In this document: positions 15,600-22,612 of the stretch, piece after piece | Numbering within the stretch: the first letter of the stretch is position 1 | How the letters are laid out: each line of letters begins with the position of its first letter | Assembly (NCBI GenBank): GCA_964508365.1 | Contig: CAZDTP010000030.1 | Span: forward strand, 1-45,817 | Origin: an uncultured archaeon | Lineage (GTDB): Archaea; Asgardarchaeota; Lokiarchaeia; Sigyniarchaeales; SOKP01 | Length of the DNA stretch: 45,817 nt | Reading direction: 5' to 3' | Made by a program: the position numbers and the translations under genes | Notes under the pieces: generated by a model | Told to the model about the DNA's origin: nothing | Databases searched by the model: none | Seen by the model: the letters and a program-made list of their open reading frames with translations, nothing else

Positions 15600-16742
15600 T
15601 TAAGTGTTTATATGAATGACTTTTGCAGGGGGAAATCCATTAAAATGAGTAGCGGAAGCATTAGTATAAGCTCCAACATTTTCAGAATAGAGTAAATCTT
15701 CAAGATTTAATTCAGGTAATTGTTCATGGAGAGAAATTTTGTCTAAAGCATCGCACGTTGGTCCTACGACTGCAGATTCTTTTAGCAAACCTTCCTTGAA
15801 AGCTTTAAAATGATATTGGATATGGTCGAAAATAACGCCTGAAAAGGTATTATATACTCCATCATTAACATAATAATATATTTTATCGTTTCTCATCGCT
15901 TTACCGTTAATTTCGACTATAACAACCGCTGTAGTTGCAACAAAAAAGCGTCCCGGTTCTGCTATTATTTTTATTTCAAGATTATCAAAGTATTCAGAGA
16001 TATTACTGTTAATAACTTCAGCTAAGGTTTCAAAAGAAGGGGTATATTCTTCATAGGGAACGGGAAAACCACCACCTATATCTAAGAATGTTAATTCTTC
16101 TCCAATCTCTTTAGCTTGTTCAAAAAGTTCACGAGTAATTTGAAATGCGTGGGTATAGTTTTCGAAATTACTACATTGACTACCAACATGAAAACTCAAT
16201 CCCTCCACTTTAAGTCCTAACTTTTTCGCATGTTTAATTAAGTCCAGACAAATGTTAGGATTCGCTCCAAATTTTGTAGAGAGCTCCACAACTGAGCCAG
16301 TGTTAGGAACATCCACCCGTAAAATTAAACGGCTATTTTTACAGTATTGAGCAATCTTATCAACTTCTATATAATTATCAAAAGTCATTCGGATAGAAAA
16401 TTCATTGAGTTTTTTTAATGAATCGATTCTTTTTACAGGATTAGCATAAATTACTTTCTCATTCATAAATGCTTTTTTATCCTCTTGATTTCCCTCAATC
16501 ACATCATAAACAATCATGAATTCTTCCCACGAAGCAACATCAAACCCACAACCTTCATTGTATAAAGTTTCTACTATTTTTGGTTCGGGATTAGCTTTTA
16601 TAGCATAAAAAGGTTGTACATCAGGGAGATACTTGCAGAAATTAAAATAGTTCGCTTTAATTAAGTCATGATCAATAACAATCAAGGGAGTACCATTTGC
16701 ATTCGCAAGGTTTAATAGAGTTGATTTCTCAATCATTTTCAT
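15600..16742 (-). CDS. Fold-type III PLP ornithine decarboxylase (eukaryote-type ODC/LDC family)
   Basis: PFYAIKANP (PLP Lys), FDVAS, KFGA, SFHVGSQ, LDIGGGF, AEPGRFF, NDGVY, IFDH specificity element, GPTCDALD, GAYT. Confidence 0.9.
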   Translation of the reverse strand: MKMIEKSTLLNLANANGTPLIVIDHDLIKANYFNFCKYLPDVQPFYAIKANPEPKIVETLYNEGCGFDVASWEEFMIVYDVIEGNQEDKKAFMNEKVIYANPVKRIDSLKKLNEFSIRMTFDNYIEVDKIAQYCKNSRLILRVDVPNTGSVVELSTKFGANPNICLDLIKHAKKLGLKVEGLSFHVGSQCSNFENYTHAFQITRELFEQAKEIGEELTFLDIGGGFPVPYEEYTPSFETLAEVINSNISEYFDNLEIKIIAEPGRFFVATTAVVIVEINGKAMRNDKIYYYVNDGVYNTFSGVIFDHIQYHFKAFKEGLLKESAVVGPTCDALDKISLHEQLPELNLEDLLYSENVGAYTNASATHFNGFPPAKVIHINT

Positions 16743-16968
16743 ATCCCTTAATTTTTAATGAATTTAATGACGCATGGTTAAAAACTTTTTTTTAACGAGT
16801 TTGCGGGAAAATGTGTGGATTAAAACATATTTTTCAAAAAACGAATTTTTGCTAAAAATTCTTTATTTAATGTGGCAAAAGACAAATCTTTAAAAAGGAA
16901 AACAACAAAACTTTATTTATATTAATTTGATTCTAAAATTTTAAATGATTAAGGAGAGGTATTATCTA

Positions 16969-17067
16969 ATGGCAAAAAAGAAAGCTCCTGTAAAAAAAAA
17001 ACCTGCACCAAAAACGCCCGTTAAGAAAAAAGCTCCCGTTAAGAAAAAAGCTCCACCTAAAAAATAA
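16969..17067 (+). CDS. Unannotated 32-aa Lys/Pro/Ala-rich basic microprotein, histone H1-tail-like
   Basis: MAKKKAPVKKKPAPKTPVKKKAPVKKKAPPKK*; AAGGAGAGGT SD 8 nt upstream; TATA-like TTTATTTATA at 16912; long T-tract at about 17100. Confidence 0.8.
   Translation: MAKKKAPVKKKPAPKTPVKKKAPVKKKAPPKK
17017..17054 (+). repeat. 18-bp tandem repeat inside the microprotein gene
   Basis: CCCGTTAAGAAAAAAGCT twice (17017-17034, 17035-17052) plus CC; in frame, encoding PVKKKA. Confidence 0.9.
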
Positions 17068-17774
17068 TTTACTAAAAAAGGAAAGGAATAACACTTCCGT
17101 TTTTTTTTATTTTTGATTTTATTATGTTTTATCTACATCTTTAACATGATAGGGAATATACTTATTTTAATGACTTTTTAACAAAATTCAAATCTGGAGA
17201 AAAACATATAGCAGAATTAAGAGTAAATCTTTAATAAGGTTTAGAAGTGATAAGATATTTTTTTAAGTGGGGGGATAACTGTTAAATTCTTTTAAGCTAT
17301 CTAATTCTCGGTCAGCAGCATAACCTAAAAATCCATTAGTAACGCAATTACTATAGAAATTAAATTTTAATGATAATGATTATCCTGCTTTCCAGTAGTG
17401 GTTCAGTCCTAGCACATGGCATTCATATGTTAATAACGGATGGCATTGATCTGGGTCTCGTTATGATGTAGGAGACTGTTGCTATACAATTTGGTTTAGA
17501 ATTGACTCGGTTTATTAAATCAGATAAAAATAAAGGATTTTGCTTAATTAAAATTTAGATCAACGATTTTAGGAGAATTATGGCTCATTTAAGGAATTAT
17601 AAGGAATTAAATAGCTAAAAACTTACTGAAATTTGGTGATTTAATGTCTCTTTTTTTTCCTTGAATAATTAATTCTCATATGAATGATTTAACCTCGCGA
17701 TTAAATAATCACACGCAATGTTAATTTGATTGTAAAGAAATTTGATTAAAATAAATCTAACATCTATAAAATAA

Positions 17775-20700
17775 TCATTGAGCTTCTTTTAATAGTAGTA
17801 CAAAATTGCTTCCCTTTGTATAATCTCCTTCAATCCTATTCTCGATAAAAATTTTTCCTCCAAACGTATCCACGATTTTTTTAACGAGGGATAAACCCAT
17901 TCCCATCCCCATTCTTTTATGGGTTTTATCTCGATTGTAAGTCTTTTCAAATAAAGTTTTCTTCTTTTCATCTTCGACACCCTCTCCGTAATCTTTAAAC
18001 TCAATTTTGATAAACTTCGTACCATTATCTTGAACTTTAGAAATGTTGATATCAATTTTAACCTCCGTTTCGTTATTGTTAAACTTCACTGCGTTATTTA
18101 GAATATTATCAAAAATTTCAGCTAAAAGTTCATTTCCGATTACTTTTATATCGTTTGAAAATTCATTAAAATCAATTTTTATATTCCTTTTTTTAAACGA
18201 GGTTTTTATATTTTCAACAGCAGTAATTAATTGTCCGGAAATTTCTATAGGACTTAATTCTCTCTCTTCTTCGTTTATGTCTGAGAGTTTTTTAATATTT
18301 CCAATTAAAGTTGAACCTCTATTTAAGTGGTATTTCAGTATTTCAGAGATATCTCCTAGTTCTTTCAATTGTTCAGGATCATCTCGAAATTTAGAATAGT
18401 ACTCTACTGCTAAAACCATACTTTGAAGGATATTTCTCATGTCGTGAGCAAAGAGATCCTTGTAAAAATTGGCTAGATTGTAAGCTTCTTGAATTTTTTC
18501 TTTGGATTCTACTATTATTTGATTGGTTCTTGTTCGCTCGGTTATATCTATTTCTTGGATAACAGCATTTGTTATCTTACCATAAATATCCAAAATAGGA
18601 AAAATAGAAATATCTACAATAACTTTAGGATACTTCTCTATGGAAATATTTTCAAGATTAGAGCGATCATAAACCATCGTGAATCTAGCAGCTTTACCTT
18701 CATTATAAACAGAATTGACTAAATGCATATGACCTTGTTCTTCTATAAGGTTGTCTTTGAAGATATTATAGATACCTACTATTTCCTCTTCGTTTAAATT
18801 CAATAAGTTTAAACACGCTTGATTTATCCTTATTAAAGTTCCATGTTCATCAGATATCCACGTAGCATATGGGCTTTGGTCAATAACACTATTTAGAAAC
18901 GATTCAGAAATGAGTAGATCTCTTTCTATTTCCTTACGTTTGGTGATGTCAAAAAAAGTAATAACTACACCATTAATGATATTATCTATAGTTCTATAAG
19001 GAGTTATTTTCATTGTATACCAATTGTTATTATTATCTTGAACATCTTGTTCTTTTGGAATTAAGGATTTTAGGACTTCTTCAATATCAATTAGTAAGTT
19101 ATTATATTTTAGATTTGAAGAGATATGTTGGATTGGCCGCCCGATGTCAGAATCAATTAAATTGAGGATTCTGGTAGCAGAAGGAGTAAAAAGATTTGTG
19201 TTAAAATCAAGATCTAAAAAAATCGTACTAATTTCCGTACTTTCCATTAAATTTGCCAAATCATTATTGGCTATTGATAAATCCATGATTCTTGCTTCTA
19301 ATTCCGCATTTACCGTCATTAATTCTTCGTTAACAGATTGTAATTCCTCTTTTGATGTTTGTAATTCCTCGTTAGTACTTTGCAATTCTTCAATTGATGA
19401 TTGTAACTCCTCGTTTGTAGATTTGAGTTCCTCATTTGAAGTTTCAAGCTCCTCTATCGTTGTTTGAAGAGACTGTTTGGTTGAATTTAATTCATCTTCT
19501 AATTGTTTAATCCTCTGTTTTGTTAAATCGTCTATAGATTCGAGTTTTATTTCTATGGATTCCTCTTTTGGTTTTGATAAAATTTTTTCAAAGAGAACCA
19601 TGAACAATCCTTCCATCATTGGAGCTTCAAATATAGGTTTTACGATCAAATTTAATGAGACAGAAGTTCCGTTAGTTTTCACTTTTAGATTTTTATATAT
19701 TACATCTTTTTTCGTTGAATTCGCTTTTCTAAGTGCTGTTGTTAATTCTAATCGAAAACCTTCTCTAGCCATATCAAGAATATTTAAACGAGCATCCCCT
19801 GTAGAAGGTTCAAGAAATTCCCCTGTACGACCGTGAAAATATAGAATCTTATATTCTTTATTAATAATTACAGCGGGAGGAGCGTATTCATTAAGAAGAA
19901 ATTCTTCAATTATTTCATTATAAGAAATTTTTTCCTGCAAACCAGAATCAAGTGGATAATCAGCTTTATAATTATAATCAATTAATGGAGGAAAAAATCT
20001 TTCTCTTTCGCCTATGGGGAGTAATGGTTCTTTACGTTGAAAAATTTTCCACTTTTTTTCTATTACTCTATAATAAGACGAAACCTTAGTGATAGATTCT
20101 GAACTTCCTAGAAATAGAAAACCATTGTCATTTAGAGCATAGTGAAATAGAAGTAACATTTTGTTCTGAATATCAGATAGTAAATAAATTAATAAATTAC
20201 GACATGAGATTAAATCCATTTTTGAAAAGGGGGGATCAGTAATAACATTTTGAGTTGCAAACACAATATCATTCCTTATGCTCTTCTTAATCTGGAGCAT
20301 ATTATCATGTAAGTTAAAGTATTTCTTAATATATTCTGTTGGGATATCCACAGCAACACCATCGGGATATATTCCTTGGCGAGCCTTTTCAATTGCGACA
20401 TCATCTATATCTGTGCCAAAAATTTGTACCTTAATATCCTTTTTTATTCTTTCTTTGTATTCGTTTATCAGTATTGCGATCGAATATGCCTCCTCACCAG
20501 TAGAACACGCTGGAATCCATATTCGTATTATTTTAGCATTTATTTTATTTTTAAAGAGCTCTGGAATTACTTTTTCTTGAAGATGTTTAAAAGCTTCTTT
20601 ATCACGGAAGAAATTCGTAACTCCTATAAGAATTTCTCGAAAAAGGAATTCTAATTCTTTTGGGTTGGTTTCAAGATAAATAACATATTTTTCTATAGTG

Positions 20701-21494
20701 CTTGTTTTAGTTATGGTTATTCGTCGATCAATTCTACGAAGAAGTGTATTATCTTTATAAGCAGAGAATTCGTGTCCTGCGTGAGAACGCAATAAATAGA
20801 ATATTTTCTCGAGATAGTCTTTGGTTTGAAGATTAGGTTTAATAACTTTGCTCTCAATAGAAGAGAATGTCTTTTCTACGAATGCAATTAATTGTTCTGG
20901 AAGCTCTTCAACGGGAAGAATATAATCTACGATAGCGCTATTAATTGCACTTCTGGGCATTCCGTCATACTTTGCAGATGCAGGGTCTTGCACCATTACC
21001 ATTCCTTCTCTTCCCTTAATTTCTCTTAAGCCAAGAGTTCCATCCGTCCCAGTACCTGAAAGCACGATGCATATAGCTTTTTCTTTTTGATCTTCTGCGA
21101 GAGTACGGAAGAAAAAATCGATCGGTAATCGTAAACCTCGAGGGGCAGATGGTTTTAAAATATAAAGTTTTTTTCTCTCTATTTTCAAATCATAATTAGG
21201 AGGAATGATATAAGCATGGTTTGGTTTGACATCCATACCATCTTCTATCTCGACAACATTCATTTTTGTGTATTTTCTGATTAACTCGGTTAAAATACTT
21301 TTATGCGTAGGATCGAGATGAGGGACTAATATAAACGCCATCCCACTATCAGAAGGCATGTTGGAGAAAAATTTTTCAAAAGCTTCTAAACCCCCTGCTG
21401 AAGCTCCTATTCCAACAATTGGAAAGTTAGTTGAATTTTTCTCTTTTTTACCTATTATCTTTTTTTGTGTGTCACTCTTCATTAGTATCCACAT
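17775..21494 (-). CDS. CheB-CheR-coiled coil-PAS-PAS-histidine kinase hybrid protein
   Basis: CheB GASAGG/VPHL/GTGTDG triad; CheR ACSTGEEAY, GTDID, SCRNLLIY; EELQSxNEEL heptads; two PAS domains; HDMRN H-box, NNAVKF, DYGEG, GMGLSLVK. Confidence 0.92.
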   Translation of the reverse strand: MWILMKSDTQKKIIGKKEKNSTNFPIVGIGASAGGLEAFEKFFSNMPSDSGMAFILVPHLDPTHKSILTELIRKYTKMNVVEIEDGMDVKPNHAYIIPPNYDLKIERKKLYILKPSAPRGLRLPIDFFFRTLAEDQKEKAICIVLSGTGTDGTLGLREIKGREGMVMVQDPASAKYDGMPRSAINSAIVDYILPVEELPEQLIAFVEKTFSSIESKVIKPNLQTKDYLEKIFYLLRSHAGHEFSAYKDNTLLRRIDRRITITKTSTIEKYVIYLETNPKELEFLFREILIGVTNFFRDKEAFKHLQEKVIPELFKNKINAKIIRIWIPACSTGEEAYSIAILINEYKERIKKDIKVQIFGTDIDDVAIEKARQGIYPDGVAVDIPTEYIKKYFNLHDNMLQIKKSIRNDIVFATQNVITDPPFSKMDLISCRNLLIYLLSDIQNKMLLLFHYALNDNGFLFLGSSESITKVSSYYRVIEKKWKIFQRKEPLLPIGERERFFPPLIDYNYKADYPLDSGLQEKISYNEIIEEFLLNEYAPPAVIINKEYKILYFHGRTGEFLEPSTGDARLNILDMAREGFRLELTTALRKANSTKKDVIYKNLKVKTNGTSVSLNLIVKPIFEAPMMEGLFMVLFEKILSKPKEESIEIKLESIDDLTKQRIKQLEDELNSTKQSLQTTIEELETSNEELKSTNEELQSSIEELQSTNEELQTSKEELQSVNEELMTVNAELEARIMDLSIANNDLANLMESTEISTIFLDLDFNTNLFTPSATRILNLIDSDIGRPIQHISSNLKYNNLLIDIEEVLKSLIPKEQDVQDNNNNWYTMKITPYRTIDNIINGVVITFFDITKRKEIERDLLISESFLNSVIDQSPYATWISDEHGTLIRINQACLNLLNLNEEEIVGIYNIFKDNLIEEQGHMHLVNSVYNEGKAARFTMVYDRSNLENISIEKYPKVIVDISIFPILDIYGKITNAVIQEIDITERTRTNQIIVESKEKIQEAYNLANFYKDLFAHDMRNILQSMVLAVEYYSKFRDDPEQLKELGDISEILKYHLNRGSTLIGNIKKLSDINEEERELSPIEISGQLITAVENIKTSFKKRNIKIDFNEFSNDIKVIGNELLAEIFDNILNNAVKFNNNETEVKIDINISKVQDNGTKFIKIEFKDYGEGVEDEKKKTLFEKTYNRDKTHKRMGMGMGLSLVKKIVDTFGGKIFIENRIEGDYTKGSNFVLLLKEAQ

Positions 21495-21898
21495 AATGAA
21501 TATAAGTTAGTCTTTTTAAATCCATTTAGTGTCAGAAAACTTTTGCATTCAACGCTTCTTTAACTTTTATTATCAACTTATGATCTTATCGATCACCTTT
21601 TGTTCATTAATCTTCGTGTCACATATATCTAAGCTTCATCATCAAATGGCATTTTCAGTATAGCAAGTATATTTCAATCGTTATCAACTAAAAACATAGC
21701 CCTTATAAAAAATAAGCTTGAGGGAAGGGAATCATGATGTTATAATGCTAATAGTAGTATTTGGTATTTGTGTTATAAATTTTAGAATTATAAGTTTAAA
21801 TTAATATTAGAAATTTTAAATAATCATAAATAATGAAAGAGGAGTGAAGACAAAGTCATAAAATATTTATGTTAAATACAATATTAGTTACTTAACTA

Positions 21899-22612
21899 AT
21901 GAAGACAAAAACGGAAAAAAACGACCAAGAGTCGTGCCAATCCACTATAAATCCCAGCGAGTGGAAGGGAAGAACAATAGAAATTGACGATGCTGGGACG
22001 GGTGATCTCGTTGGGAATGCATTTATTGGATTTCATGATACGAGCACGGGAAGAATTATATTTCAAACGGTTCCAGTTGACCTCTATAAAGAAGATGAGG
22101 ATAAGAAGAACCATATTCTAAAACCGAAGGAACAGATTCTTAAAGTTGTTATAAAAGCTCTTAGAATTCTTAATCACAACAAGGGTGATAGAATACTTCT
22201 ATGTCGGGGTAATTGTTTTGATCTTGTTAGAGAATATTTTGACGAGAACAAGATATATTACGAGCCGGCAATTGTCGAAGGAGAGCTCCAGGACGCTGTG
22301 GAGGGCAGATTTCTTCAACACCTCAGAAATTTAGGAGTACGCTCGAAAAATCTTACGATGGACTCAGGGATCAAGAGATATTTTATCTTGTTTAACTGGG
22401 TATGTAGGGACTTCCCAAATCGGGAGCGTTACGTTAAGACGGGCTTCCCAGCGTGGAAAAGGAAATGGCGTAAGATTGCTTTGGAGAGATACCAAACAAA
22501 AATACCTAATTCTCGGAGAAGGGAATTAATTGAGCAAAGAGCTAATGAAATCTATAAAGTTATGCTTGAGAAATCTATTTCTGTAAGAGAGACAGTCTCT
22601 CAGAGAAGATAA
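21899..22612 (+). CDS. Conserved hypothetical protein with an acidic DDAGxG motif (possible RNase H-like fold)
   Basis: Long clean ORF; IEIDDAGTGDLVG resembles the RNase HII DEAGRG motif; LLCRGNCFD and VKTGF motifs. Confidence 0.55.
   Translation: MKTKTEKNDQESCQSTINPSEWKGRTIEIDDAGTGDLVGNAFIGFHDTSTGRIIFQTVPVDLYKEDEDKKNHILKPKEQILKVVIKALRILNHNKGDRILLCRGNCFDLVREYFDENKIYYEPAIVEGELQDAVEGRFLQHLRNLGVRSKNLTMDSGIKRYFILFNWVCRDFPNRERYVKTGFPAWKRKWRKIALERYQTKIPNSRRRELIEQRANEIYKVMLEKSISVRETVSQRR

Follow-up and report, generated by a model that had tools for sequence, protein, structure and literature searches.

A conserved stand-alone gene predicted to encode a lysine-rich, histone-tail-like microprotein in one uncultured family of Lokiarchaeia

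The linker histone H1 of kinetoplastids consists of a tail only, without a globular domain. The tiny ribosomal proteins eL41/eS32, bS22, and bL37 are very small, basic, Arg-rich, and universal within their lineages. Tailed histones of Lokiarchaeia, named HLoB, were described in 2026, and their tails are lysine-rich and disordered (bioRxiv 10.64898/2026.07.02.735847). HLoB is among the most abundant proteins of the cell and co-localizes with DNA, and its tails are methylated and acetylated by Asgard enzymes, which acetylate and deacetylate such tails with a broad specificity for lysine-rich disordered tails (bioRxiv 10.64898/2026.07.02.735847). Literature and full-text searches returned no paper on a free peptide of this kind, and the HLoB preprint is silent on one.

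The window analyzed here, a stretch of 45,817 nt that constitutes contig C30, belongs to a Lokiarchaeia genome (G000) of 4.07 Mb and 31.8% GC, distributed over 149 contigs and 100% complete by marker genes. The first-pass annotation had drawn attention to an unannotated lysine-rich microprotein in this window and had proposed that it is a real gene with its own expression signals. The ORF occupies a gap of about 1 kb between two minus-strand genes, namely, a PLP decarboxylase of the Orn/DAP/Arg family at 15600-16742(-), which is divergent from the microprotein gene, and a 1239-aa CheB-CheR-PAS-histidine-kinase fusion at 17775-21494(-). Rfam and tRNA scans of the window gave no match. The features of the locus are as follows.

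16859..17159, plus strand: conserved gene module (promoter, leader, CDS, terminator), the sole block aligned with the closest relative (G011) between the flanking genes
16889..16896, plus strand: predicted archaeal TATA box TTTAAAAA, with an A-rich stretch 5' of it; the TTTA.A columns are invariant in 14 upstream regions
16951..16960, plus strand: Shine-Dalgarno (SD) site AAGGAGAGGT, 8 nt 5' of the ATG; GGAG core in 32 of 33 loci
16969..17067, plus strand: CDS of the 32-aa K/A/P microprotein (P0001), stop included; frame kept in orthologues, pN/pS 0.08
17017..17054, plus strand: in-frame 18-bp tandem duplication, called by TRF
17100..17114, plus strand: predicted oligo-T terminator (T9, then T5); T-run in 33 of 33 loci

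Translation and recount confirmed the ORF at 16969-17067(+), with 32 codons followed by TAA, the translation first given for it, and its residue counts: 15 K, 7 P, 5 A, 3 V, 1 T, and 1 M; acidic and aromatic residues are absent. At 47% K, 22% P, and 16% A, the product has the K/A/P-rich composition of the disordered tails of linker histones H1/H5. Its net charge is about +15 in 31 residues once the initiator Met is taken off, and since prolines recur every four to seven residues, no stable fold is predicted. The mixed use of synonymous codons pointed out in the first-pass annotation was seen again, and the in-frame 18-bp duplication that it had reported at 17017-17054 proved exact (period 18, 2.1 copies, 100% match); this duplication represents one extra six-residue unit, which the closest orthologue (L002) has in single copy. 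Among the 24,104 ATG-initiated ORFs of 20-60 aa found in the six frames of the genome, a K fraction of at least 0.33 together with a P fraction of at least 0.10 occurred only in this ORF and in its 40-aa upstream-ATG extension. Because its composition is unique among these small ORFs, the AT-richness of the genome does not explain it. Searches of the microprotein against Pfam (E<=10) and NCBIfam gave no family, and phmmer against PDB sequences gave no match.

Protein and DNA-pattern searches of relatives recovered orthologues as stand-alone ORFs of 27-37 aa built from the same K/A/P units, and gene callers had predicted precisely this 32-aa product on four independent metagenome contigs. The overall composition of 33 orthologues (K 49%, A 26%, P 18%, and R 0.1%) is of the H1-tail or histone-tail type and unlike the Arg-rich type of tiny ribosomal proteins. 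Eight orthologues, all of 37 residues and thus alignable unambiguously, were then compared codon by codon, leaving out the ten codons used for finding them, as motif-based ascertainment favors conserved N-termini. In the sense frame, pS was 0.45 and pN 0.036, for a pN/pS of 0.08, as compared with 2.6-6.8 in the other frames, except for 0.15 in the antisense frame that shares the wobble positions. A strain variant of the window gene likewise carried four synonymous changes and no non-synonymous one. The microprotein is therefore under purifying selection at the protein level. Variation in repeat number among relatives, which the first-pass annotation had predicted, was also seen and is in frame: length is held at 27-37 residues despite repeat slippage, indels keep the frame, and slippage took the form of the 18-bp duplication here, of 36-bp units elsewhere, and of three copies shortened by an in-repeat stop. 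Six-residue units are thus gained and lost in frame as the family evolves.

The expression signals are conserved along with the coding sequence. When the upstream regions of 14 orthologues from two genera were aligned, only the TATA box and the SD site proved to be invariant blocks. The TATA-like box that is conserved among orthologues is TTTAAAAA, 80 nt 5' of the ATG; an AT-rich string closer to the gene was not conserved. The strong SD site was confirmed at 16951-16960, and the downstream T-tract was located as a T9 run at 17100-17108, 33 nt past the stop, with a second run at 17110-17114. Across 33 distinct loci, TTTA[AT]A was present at -79 to -86 from the ATG (about -81) in 31, a GGAG-type SD-like site in 32, and a run of at least 6 T within 70 nt past the stop in all 33; each signal that accompanies the K/A/P ORF of the window is hence found in 31-33 of the 33. 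From the usual archaeal spacing between TATA box and transcription start, the leader would be about 50 nt long. Since the candidate hairpin 5' of the T-run is weak and not significant (-8.1 kcal/mol, z -1.4), the T-run itself would be the terminator signal. In the same genome, the four histone genes carry GTGGAGGA at the same distance from the start as the SD site of the microprotein gene, and an SD-like core at that distance precedes about 16% of the long ORFs of the genome versus 10% in the control.

Comparison with the closest relative (G011) delimited the unit further. Only 16859-17159 aligned (81% over 302 nt), the flanks being rearranged by a 1.7-kb insertion in the relative on one side and a 4.6-kb insertion in the window genome on the other. 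As this is the sole block aligned between the rearranged flanks, we take it as the extent of the transcription unit. Synteny is partly kept between genera. On these sequence grounds, the microprotein is encoded by a genuine conserved stand-alone gene with its own predicted promoter, SD site, and terminator, in line with the earlier proposal of a real gene. It is very improbable that the ORF is non-functional, be it a chance ORF in A-rich DNA, a relic of a histone 5' end, or a lysine-sensing leader peptide that acts in cis. AAA and AAG runs are indeed common in a genome of 31.8% GC, and the divergent upstream gene encodes an Orn/DAP/Arg-family PLP decarboxylase; however, that neighbor is not conserved beyond the closest relatives, the microprotein gene has its own terminator and no same-strand gene downstream, and its promoter is unlike that of the histone gene. 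Selection on the protein, conserved expression signals, and a composition unique in the genome also argue against these options.

As to the function of the product, the reading we favor, with roughly even confidence, is that of a free disordered polycation that would bind DNA or chromatin in trans, like a histone tail or the C-terminal domain of H1. This functional assignment draws on composition and motif usage, because gene neighborhoods give no hint.

The free-standing gene was found in 45 or more of the 135 genomes of a single uncultured family of Lokiarchaeia, spread over four genera: 16 of 42 genomes in the genus of the window genome (g1), 27 of 54 in g28, 1 of 10 in g27, and 1 of 6 in g21, where the single record is uncertain. 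These counts are lower bounds, as the queries were motif-based and all genomes are MAGs, and the relatives in the census are non-independent samples. Two microprotein loci (L247 in G071:C50 and L259 in G138:C16) are identical over the stretch that was read though their genomes are assigned to different genera, which suggests that the same contig was binned twice or mis-binned and is why the g21 record is uncertain. Another locus, L103 (DATKTW010000064.1), is titled Candidatus Nanopelagicaceae, has 33% GC, contains the microprotein gene, is syntenic with the window, and was placed in the genus of the window genome, as G011; the depositor's label is probably wrong.

Beyond the family, the N-terminal motif pattern identified no microprotein in 264 Asgard genomes, and an internal-repeat pattern was likewise negative in five additional Lokiarchaeia genomes, of which three consist of a single contig. 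The microprotein was absent from the cultured Lokiarchaeia that were searched, a result that we count against binding to DNA or chromatin as its main role; Ca. Lokiarchaeum ossiferum belongs to the same order as the window genome and to another family. Viral contigs had the motif at the start of unrelated proteins and yielded no free-standing K/A/P microprotein. Reversed-pattern controls gave zero matches in any genome. Since the gene is missing, by these queries, from about two thirds of the family genomes, it appears dispensable, and this too weighs against the favored reading.

For so low-complexity a peptide, single-protein and profile searches are less sensitive than DNA patterns, and known copies were missed by them. 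A word-index search of large protein databases with the 40-aa upstream-ATG form as query gave two close variants (P0003 and P0004), and a profile search of 1.84 billion representatives gave only seven longer K/A/P-repeat proteins. An exact cluster look-up of eight microproteins found none of them, though the product of the window gene occurs on four contigs.

Gene neighborhoods were variable across loci and gave no hint at function, which we also count against a role in DNA or chromatin binding. Clustering of neighborhoods revealed recurrent neighbors within one genus, none of which belongs to a chromatin- or ribosome-related family. The PLP decarboxylase of the window has lysA as its best NCBIfam match, far below the cut-off (174 vs 298 bits), and its substrate may be a diamine or polyamine, or else lysine. 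Its pairing with the microprotein gene occurs only in this strain and, at a distance of 1.7 kb, in G011. The stretch at 17160-21808 of the window, containing the gene of the 1239-aa kinase and its flanks, is absent from the corresponding place in G011, where the homologue of window positions 21899-22612 lies about 140 nt beyond the microprotein module.

Two tiny acidic ORFs were also observed elsewhere in the genome. The first (L262:501-611, minus strand of contig C52) is a conserved stand-alone gene for a 36-aa Asp/Glu/Trp-rich microprotein. It is unlinked to the lysine-rich gene and has a predicted TATA box of its own, a leader that is conserved, and a T-run, and G011 (89% identical) and G025 (43 aa) contain orthologues. 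The second (L263:501-668, minus strand of contig C8) encodes 55 aa, of which 55% are Asp or Glu, and is preceded by a strong AAAGGAGGT site. In the window, the microprotein gene has no acidic ORF next to it. Genes of the first type were recovered with a protein query and an N-terminal pattern in 3 of 135 family genomes, one of them lacking the lysine-rich gene by the same queries. The idea of an acidic partner co-varying with the lysine-rich gene thus found no support in the family, in a test limited by the fact that the acidic N-terminus may vary.

The motif formed by the first ten codons, MAKKKAP[AV]KK, was scanned in one genome per species (185,579 species) and returned 109 stretches. In Asgard archaea, the bearers were the microproteins, a tailed histone, an AAA_5 ATPase, and one 44-aa ORF (L137). 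In bacteria, the commonest recognizable bearers, as read by eye, were DNA-binding proteins of HU/IHF-like and SWIB type, from Gammaproteobacteria and other bacteria, and long proteins made of K/A/P repeats, besides varied unrelated proteins. DNA-binding proteins thus predominate among the bearers of recognizable type, and none is ribosomal. The AAA_5 (MoxR-like) ATPases are 420-449 aa long, belong to the same Lokiarchaeia family (L014:1501-2847 and L011:10-1272, with more copies in L220 and L222), and have the lysine-rich motif at their start, extended by 15-60 K/P-rich residues. Ten gammaproteobacterial proteins of 132-168 aa (L058, L062, L066, L088, L093-L096, L115, and L116), HU/IHF-like by eye, have the motif at the start of a 40-80-residue K/A/P N-terminal extension, and two others with a SWIB-type look (L056 and L119) bear such a K/A/P tail. 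Among proteins rich in similar repeats, L248 (G093:C402) has K/A/P repeats as the C-terminal tail of a protein of at least 157 aa, and L261 (G017:C64) is an 80-aa K/P/T/R repeat protein. The opening motif looks like a portable N-terminal module.

Motif usage also bears on the possibility that the microprotein is an RNA- or ribosome-associated polycation, that is, a tiny lineage-specific ribosomal protein or an RNA chaperone acting, for example, on the rRNA expansion segments of Lokiarchaeia. We regard this as a real though minor possibility. Very small basic proteins such as those named at the outset are often ribosomal, and the strong SD site and consensus promoter of the gene resemble those of highly expressed genes. 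K/A/P repeats are, moreover, fused to an RNA-binding S1 domain in P0005, so charge alone cannot separate DNA binding from RNA binding. However, only about one third of the family genomes carry the gene and it was found in none of the other Asgard genomes, a distribution seldom seen for parts of the ribosome; none of the loci has a ribosomal gene in its vicinity; and the recognizable proteins that share the motif are mostly DNA-binding. Its Arg content of 0.1% is likewise at odds with the Arg-rich known tiny ribosomal proteins.

The bearer closest to the microprotein is the motif-headed tailed histone, a protein of 77-94 aa with a histone fold (P0002, plus two genes of Ca. L. ossiferum, L122/L185 and L225). 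The histone-tail likeness that had been proposed for the microprotein with reference to H1 therefore stood in part: the resemblance to a lysine-rich tail was upheld, and the closest match was the tailed histone of the lineage itself, not H1. Tailed histones of the P0002 type were found in 35 of the 42 genomes belonging to the genus as well as in Ca. L. ossiferum, and they co-occur with the microprotein in at least seven genomes of the genus (G007, G011, G015, G016, G026, G035, and G036). A split or truncated histone gene was ruled out as the origin of the ORF, as the promoters differ and both genes co-occur in those seven genomes. The identity over ten residues with the histone tail is restricted to a subset of orthologues, many others starting with MAKKAAPKKK or MAKKAPKKK; low complexity hence explains part of the likeness, and we count this against the favored reading. 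The window genome itself has four untailed histone genes (L150-L153, PF00808), and no tailed HLoB-type histone (P0002 orthologue) was found in it, an absence that could reflect real loss or an assembly gap.

Two more specific proposals were weighed. In the first, the microprotein would be a diffusible copy of the tail of the tailed histone, serving as an abundant, minimal linker histone on linker or wrapped DNA and having its lysine marks set and removed by the same acetylation and methylation machinery as those of the histone; at this level of detail, the proposal is doubtful. In the second, which we hold to be rather improbable, the tail copy would act as a decoy or buffer that competes for acetyltransferases, sirtuins, and methyltransferases, tuning chromatin modification and not compacting DNA. 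The N-terminal motif common to both proteins in the seven genomes that carry them, the broad specificity of Asgard tail enzymes for lysine-rich disordered tails, and the strict preference for Lys over Arg would suit such a decoy. Yet the gene shows no genomic linkage to an acetyltransferase or sirtuin gene, its N-terminus varies among orthologues while the histone tail is constant, and the window genome has the microprotein, whereas the tailed histone was not found there.

Under the favored reading of a free polycation on DNA or chromatin, removal of the initiator Met would leave a peptide presenting a lysine-rich sequence akin to the N-terminal tail of the tailed histone. The peptide would bind nucleic acid non-specifically by charge, most probably AT-rich chromosomal DNA or histone-wrapped fibers, and by neutralizing phosphates it would help to compact or bridge chromatin in trans, as a histone tail or the H1 C-terminal domain does. 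As its charge comes from Lys and Arg is nearly absent, the enzymes that acetylate and methylate the lysines of Asgard histone tails might also modify it. If a tail acting in trans is indeed what the gene provides, these Asgard archaea would have a tunable, charge-based layer of chromatin compaction apart from the histone fold, and the motif on the AAA_5 ATPase and other proteins would represent a portable nucleoid-targeting tag. Asgard archaea are the closest known relatives of eukaryotes, and a tail-only gene would add a linker-histone-like or polyamine-like player to their chromatin, and the peptide would be a simple, synthesizable reagent for probing the action of tails on hypernucleosome fibers. 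The significance of the gene is bounded by its occurrence in one uncultured lineage, its dispensability in many genomes, and a function deduced from composition and motif occurrence. More generally, the locus illustrates how a real gene that is no longer than the length cut-off of common gene callers can hide in a seemingly empty intergenic gap.

The resemblance to eukaryotic H1 calls for separate consideration. The two 8-residue strings that the first-pass annotation had ascribed to human H1 are indeed identical to stretches of the N-terminal tails of H1.4 and H1.2, as seen in the H1-4 and H1-2 peptides of PMC12249807. KTPV, KAPV, and the one TPxK site are, however, found only in the close kin of this strain, most orthologues having KAPA or KAPK. 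TPVK is present in P0001, P0003, P0004, and L002, and most orthologues lack the (S/T)-P-x-K phosphosite of H1/H5. As the site is confined to close kin, the suggestion that TPVK is a CDK-type site lost its conserved basis, and as the strings are not conserved among orthologues, their identity with H1 is best seen as a compositional coincidence and not homology. The winged-helix globular domain (Pfam Linker_histone) was not found in the microprotein, whose 32 residues are too few for this domain of roughly 80.

That the microprotein descends from a common ancestor with the H1 tail, as an Asgard precursor of linker histone H1, is scarcely credible. Beyond the shared strings and a similar K/A/P composition, this proposal has to contend with strings confined to close kin, with the lack of a winged helix and of any Pfam match, and with a distribution restricted to one Lokiarchaeia family, the gene being found in no other Asgard class. 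Convergence, which the first-pass annotation had raised in view of the low complexity, is easily reached: high-GC MAGs of Dormibacterota contain near-identical free K/A peptides of 26-28 aa that arose independently (L084:5592-5669, L108:3340-3420, L134:6340-6417, L143:5517-5597, and L144:1596-1679). Judged by sequence, the likeness to H1 is one of chemistry, not of descent, and the microprotein lies outside the H1 family.

Compared with described systems, the microprotein resembles tiny ribosomal proteins in size and in its very high positive charge and differs from them in using Lys instead of Arg and in its patchy distribution. Its repeat chemistry is that of Chlamydia Hc2, AlgP, and the lysine-rich extensions of HU/HupB; these bacterial H1-like proteins, in contrast, either measure 100-400 residues or are attached to a folded DNA-binding domain, and they are of independent origin. 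The HC2 profile (PF07382) did not match the microprotein and matched only the longer database proteins found with the family profile, and HC2 is also the family of the nearest ESM-Atlas cluster with any Pfam family (20% of members), which we treat as a lead only. The Dormibacterota peptides come nearer in form, since they are stand-alone, of similar length, and identical in their first ten residues, although they contain more Ala, Thr, and Ser and less Pro and are encoded by high-GC bacteria; they are likely a product of convergence and an independent bacterial counterpart.

Like eukaryotic H1 tails, the microprotein is K/A/P-rich, predicted to be disordered, and highly basic, and like kinetoplastid H1, it has no globular domain. 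Unlike H1 tails, it is three- to seven-fold shorter and has no winged helix, and its distribution gives no sign of common descent with H1. From HLoB it differs in having no histone fold (PF00808), with nothing after the lysine-rich repeats before the terminator, and in being encoded by a gene of its own, whose promoter and SD site are unlike those of the histone gene. The microprotein contains four to five repeats of the motif, which occurs once in the HLoB tail, and the N-terminus of the microprotein is less constant than that of the histone. With the HLoB tail it nonetheless shares the same first ten residues (MAKKKAP.KK), the K/A/P make-up, the near absence of Arg, and the genomes in which both are found.
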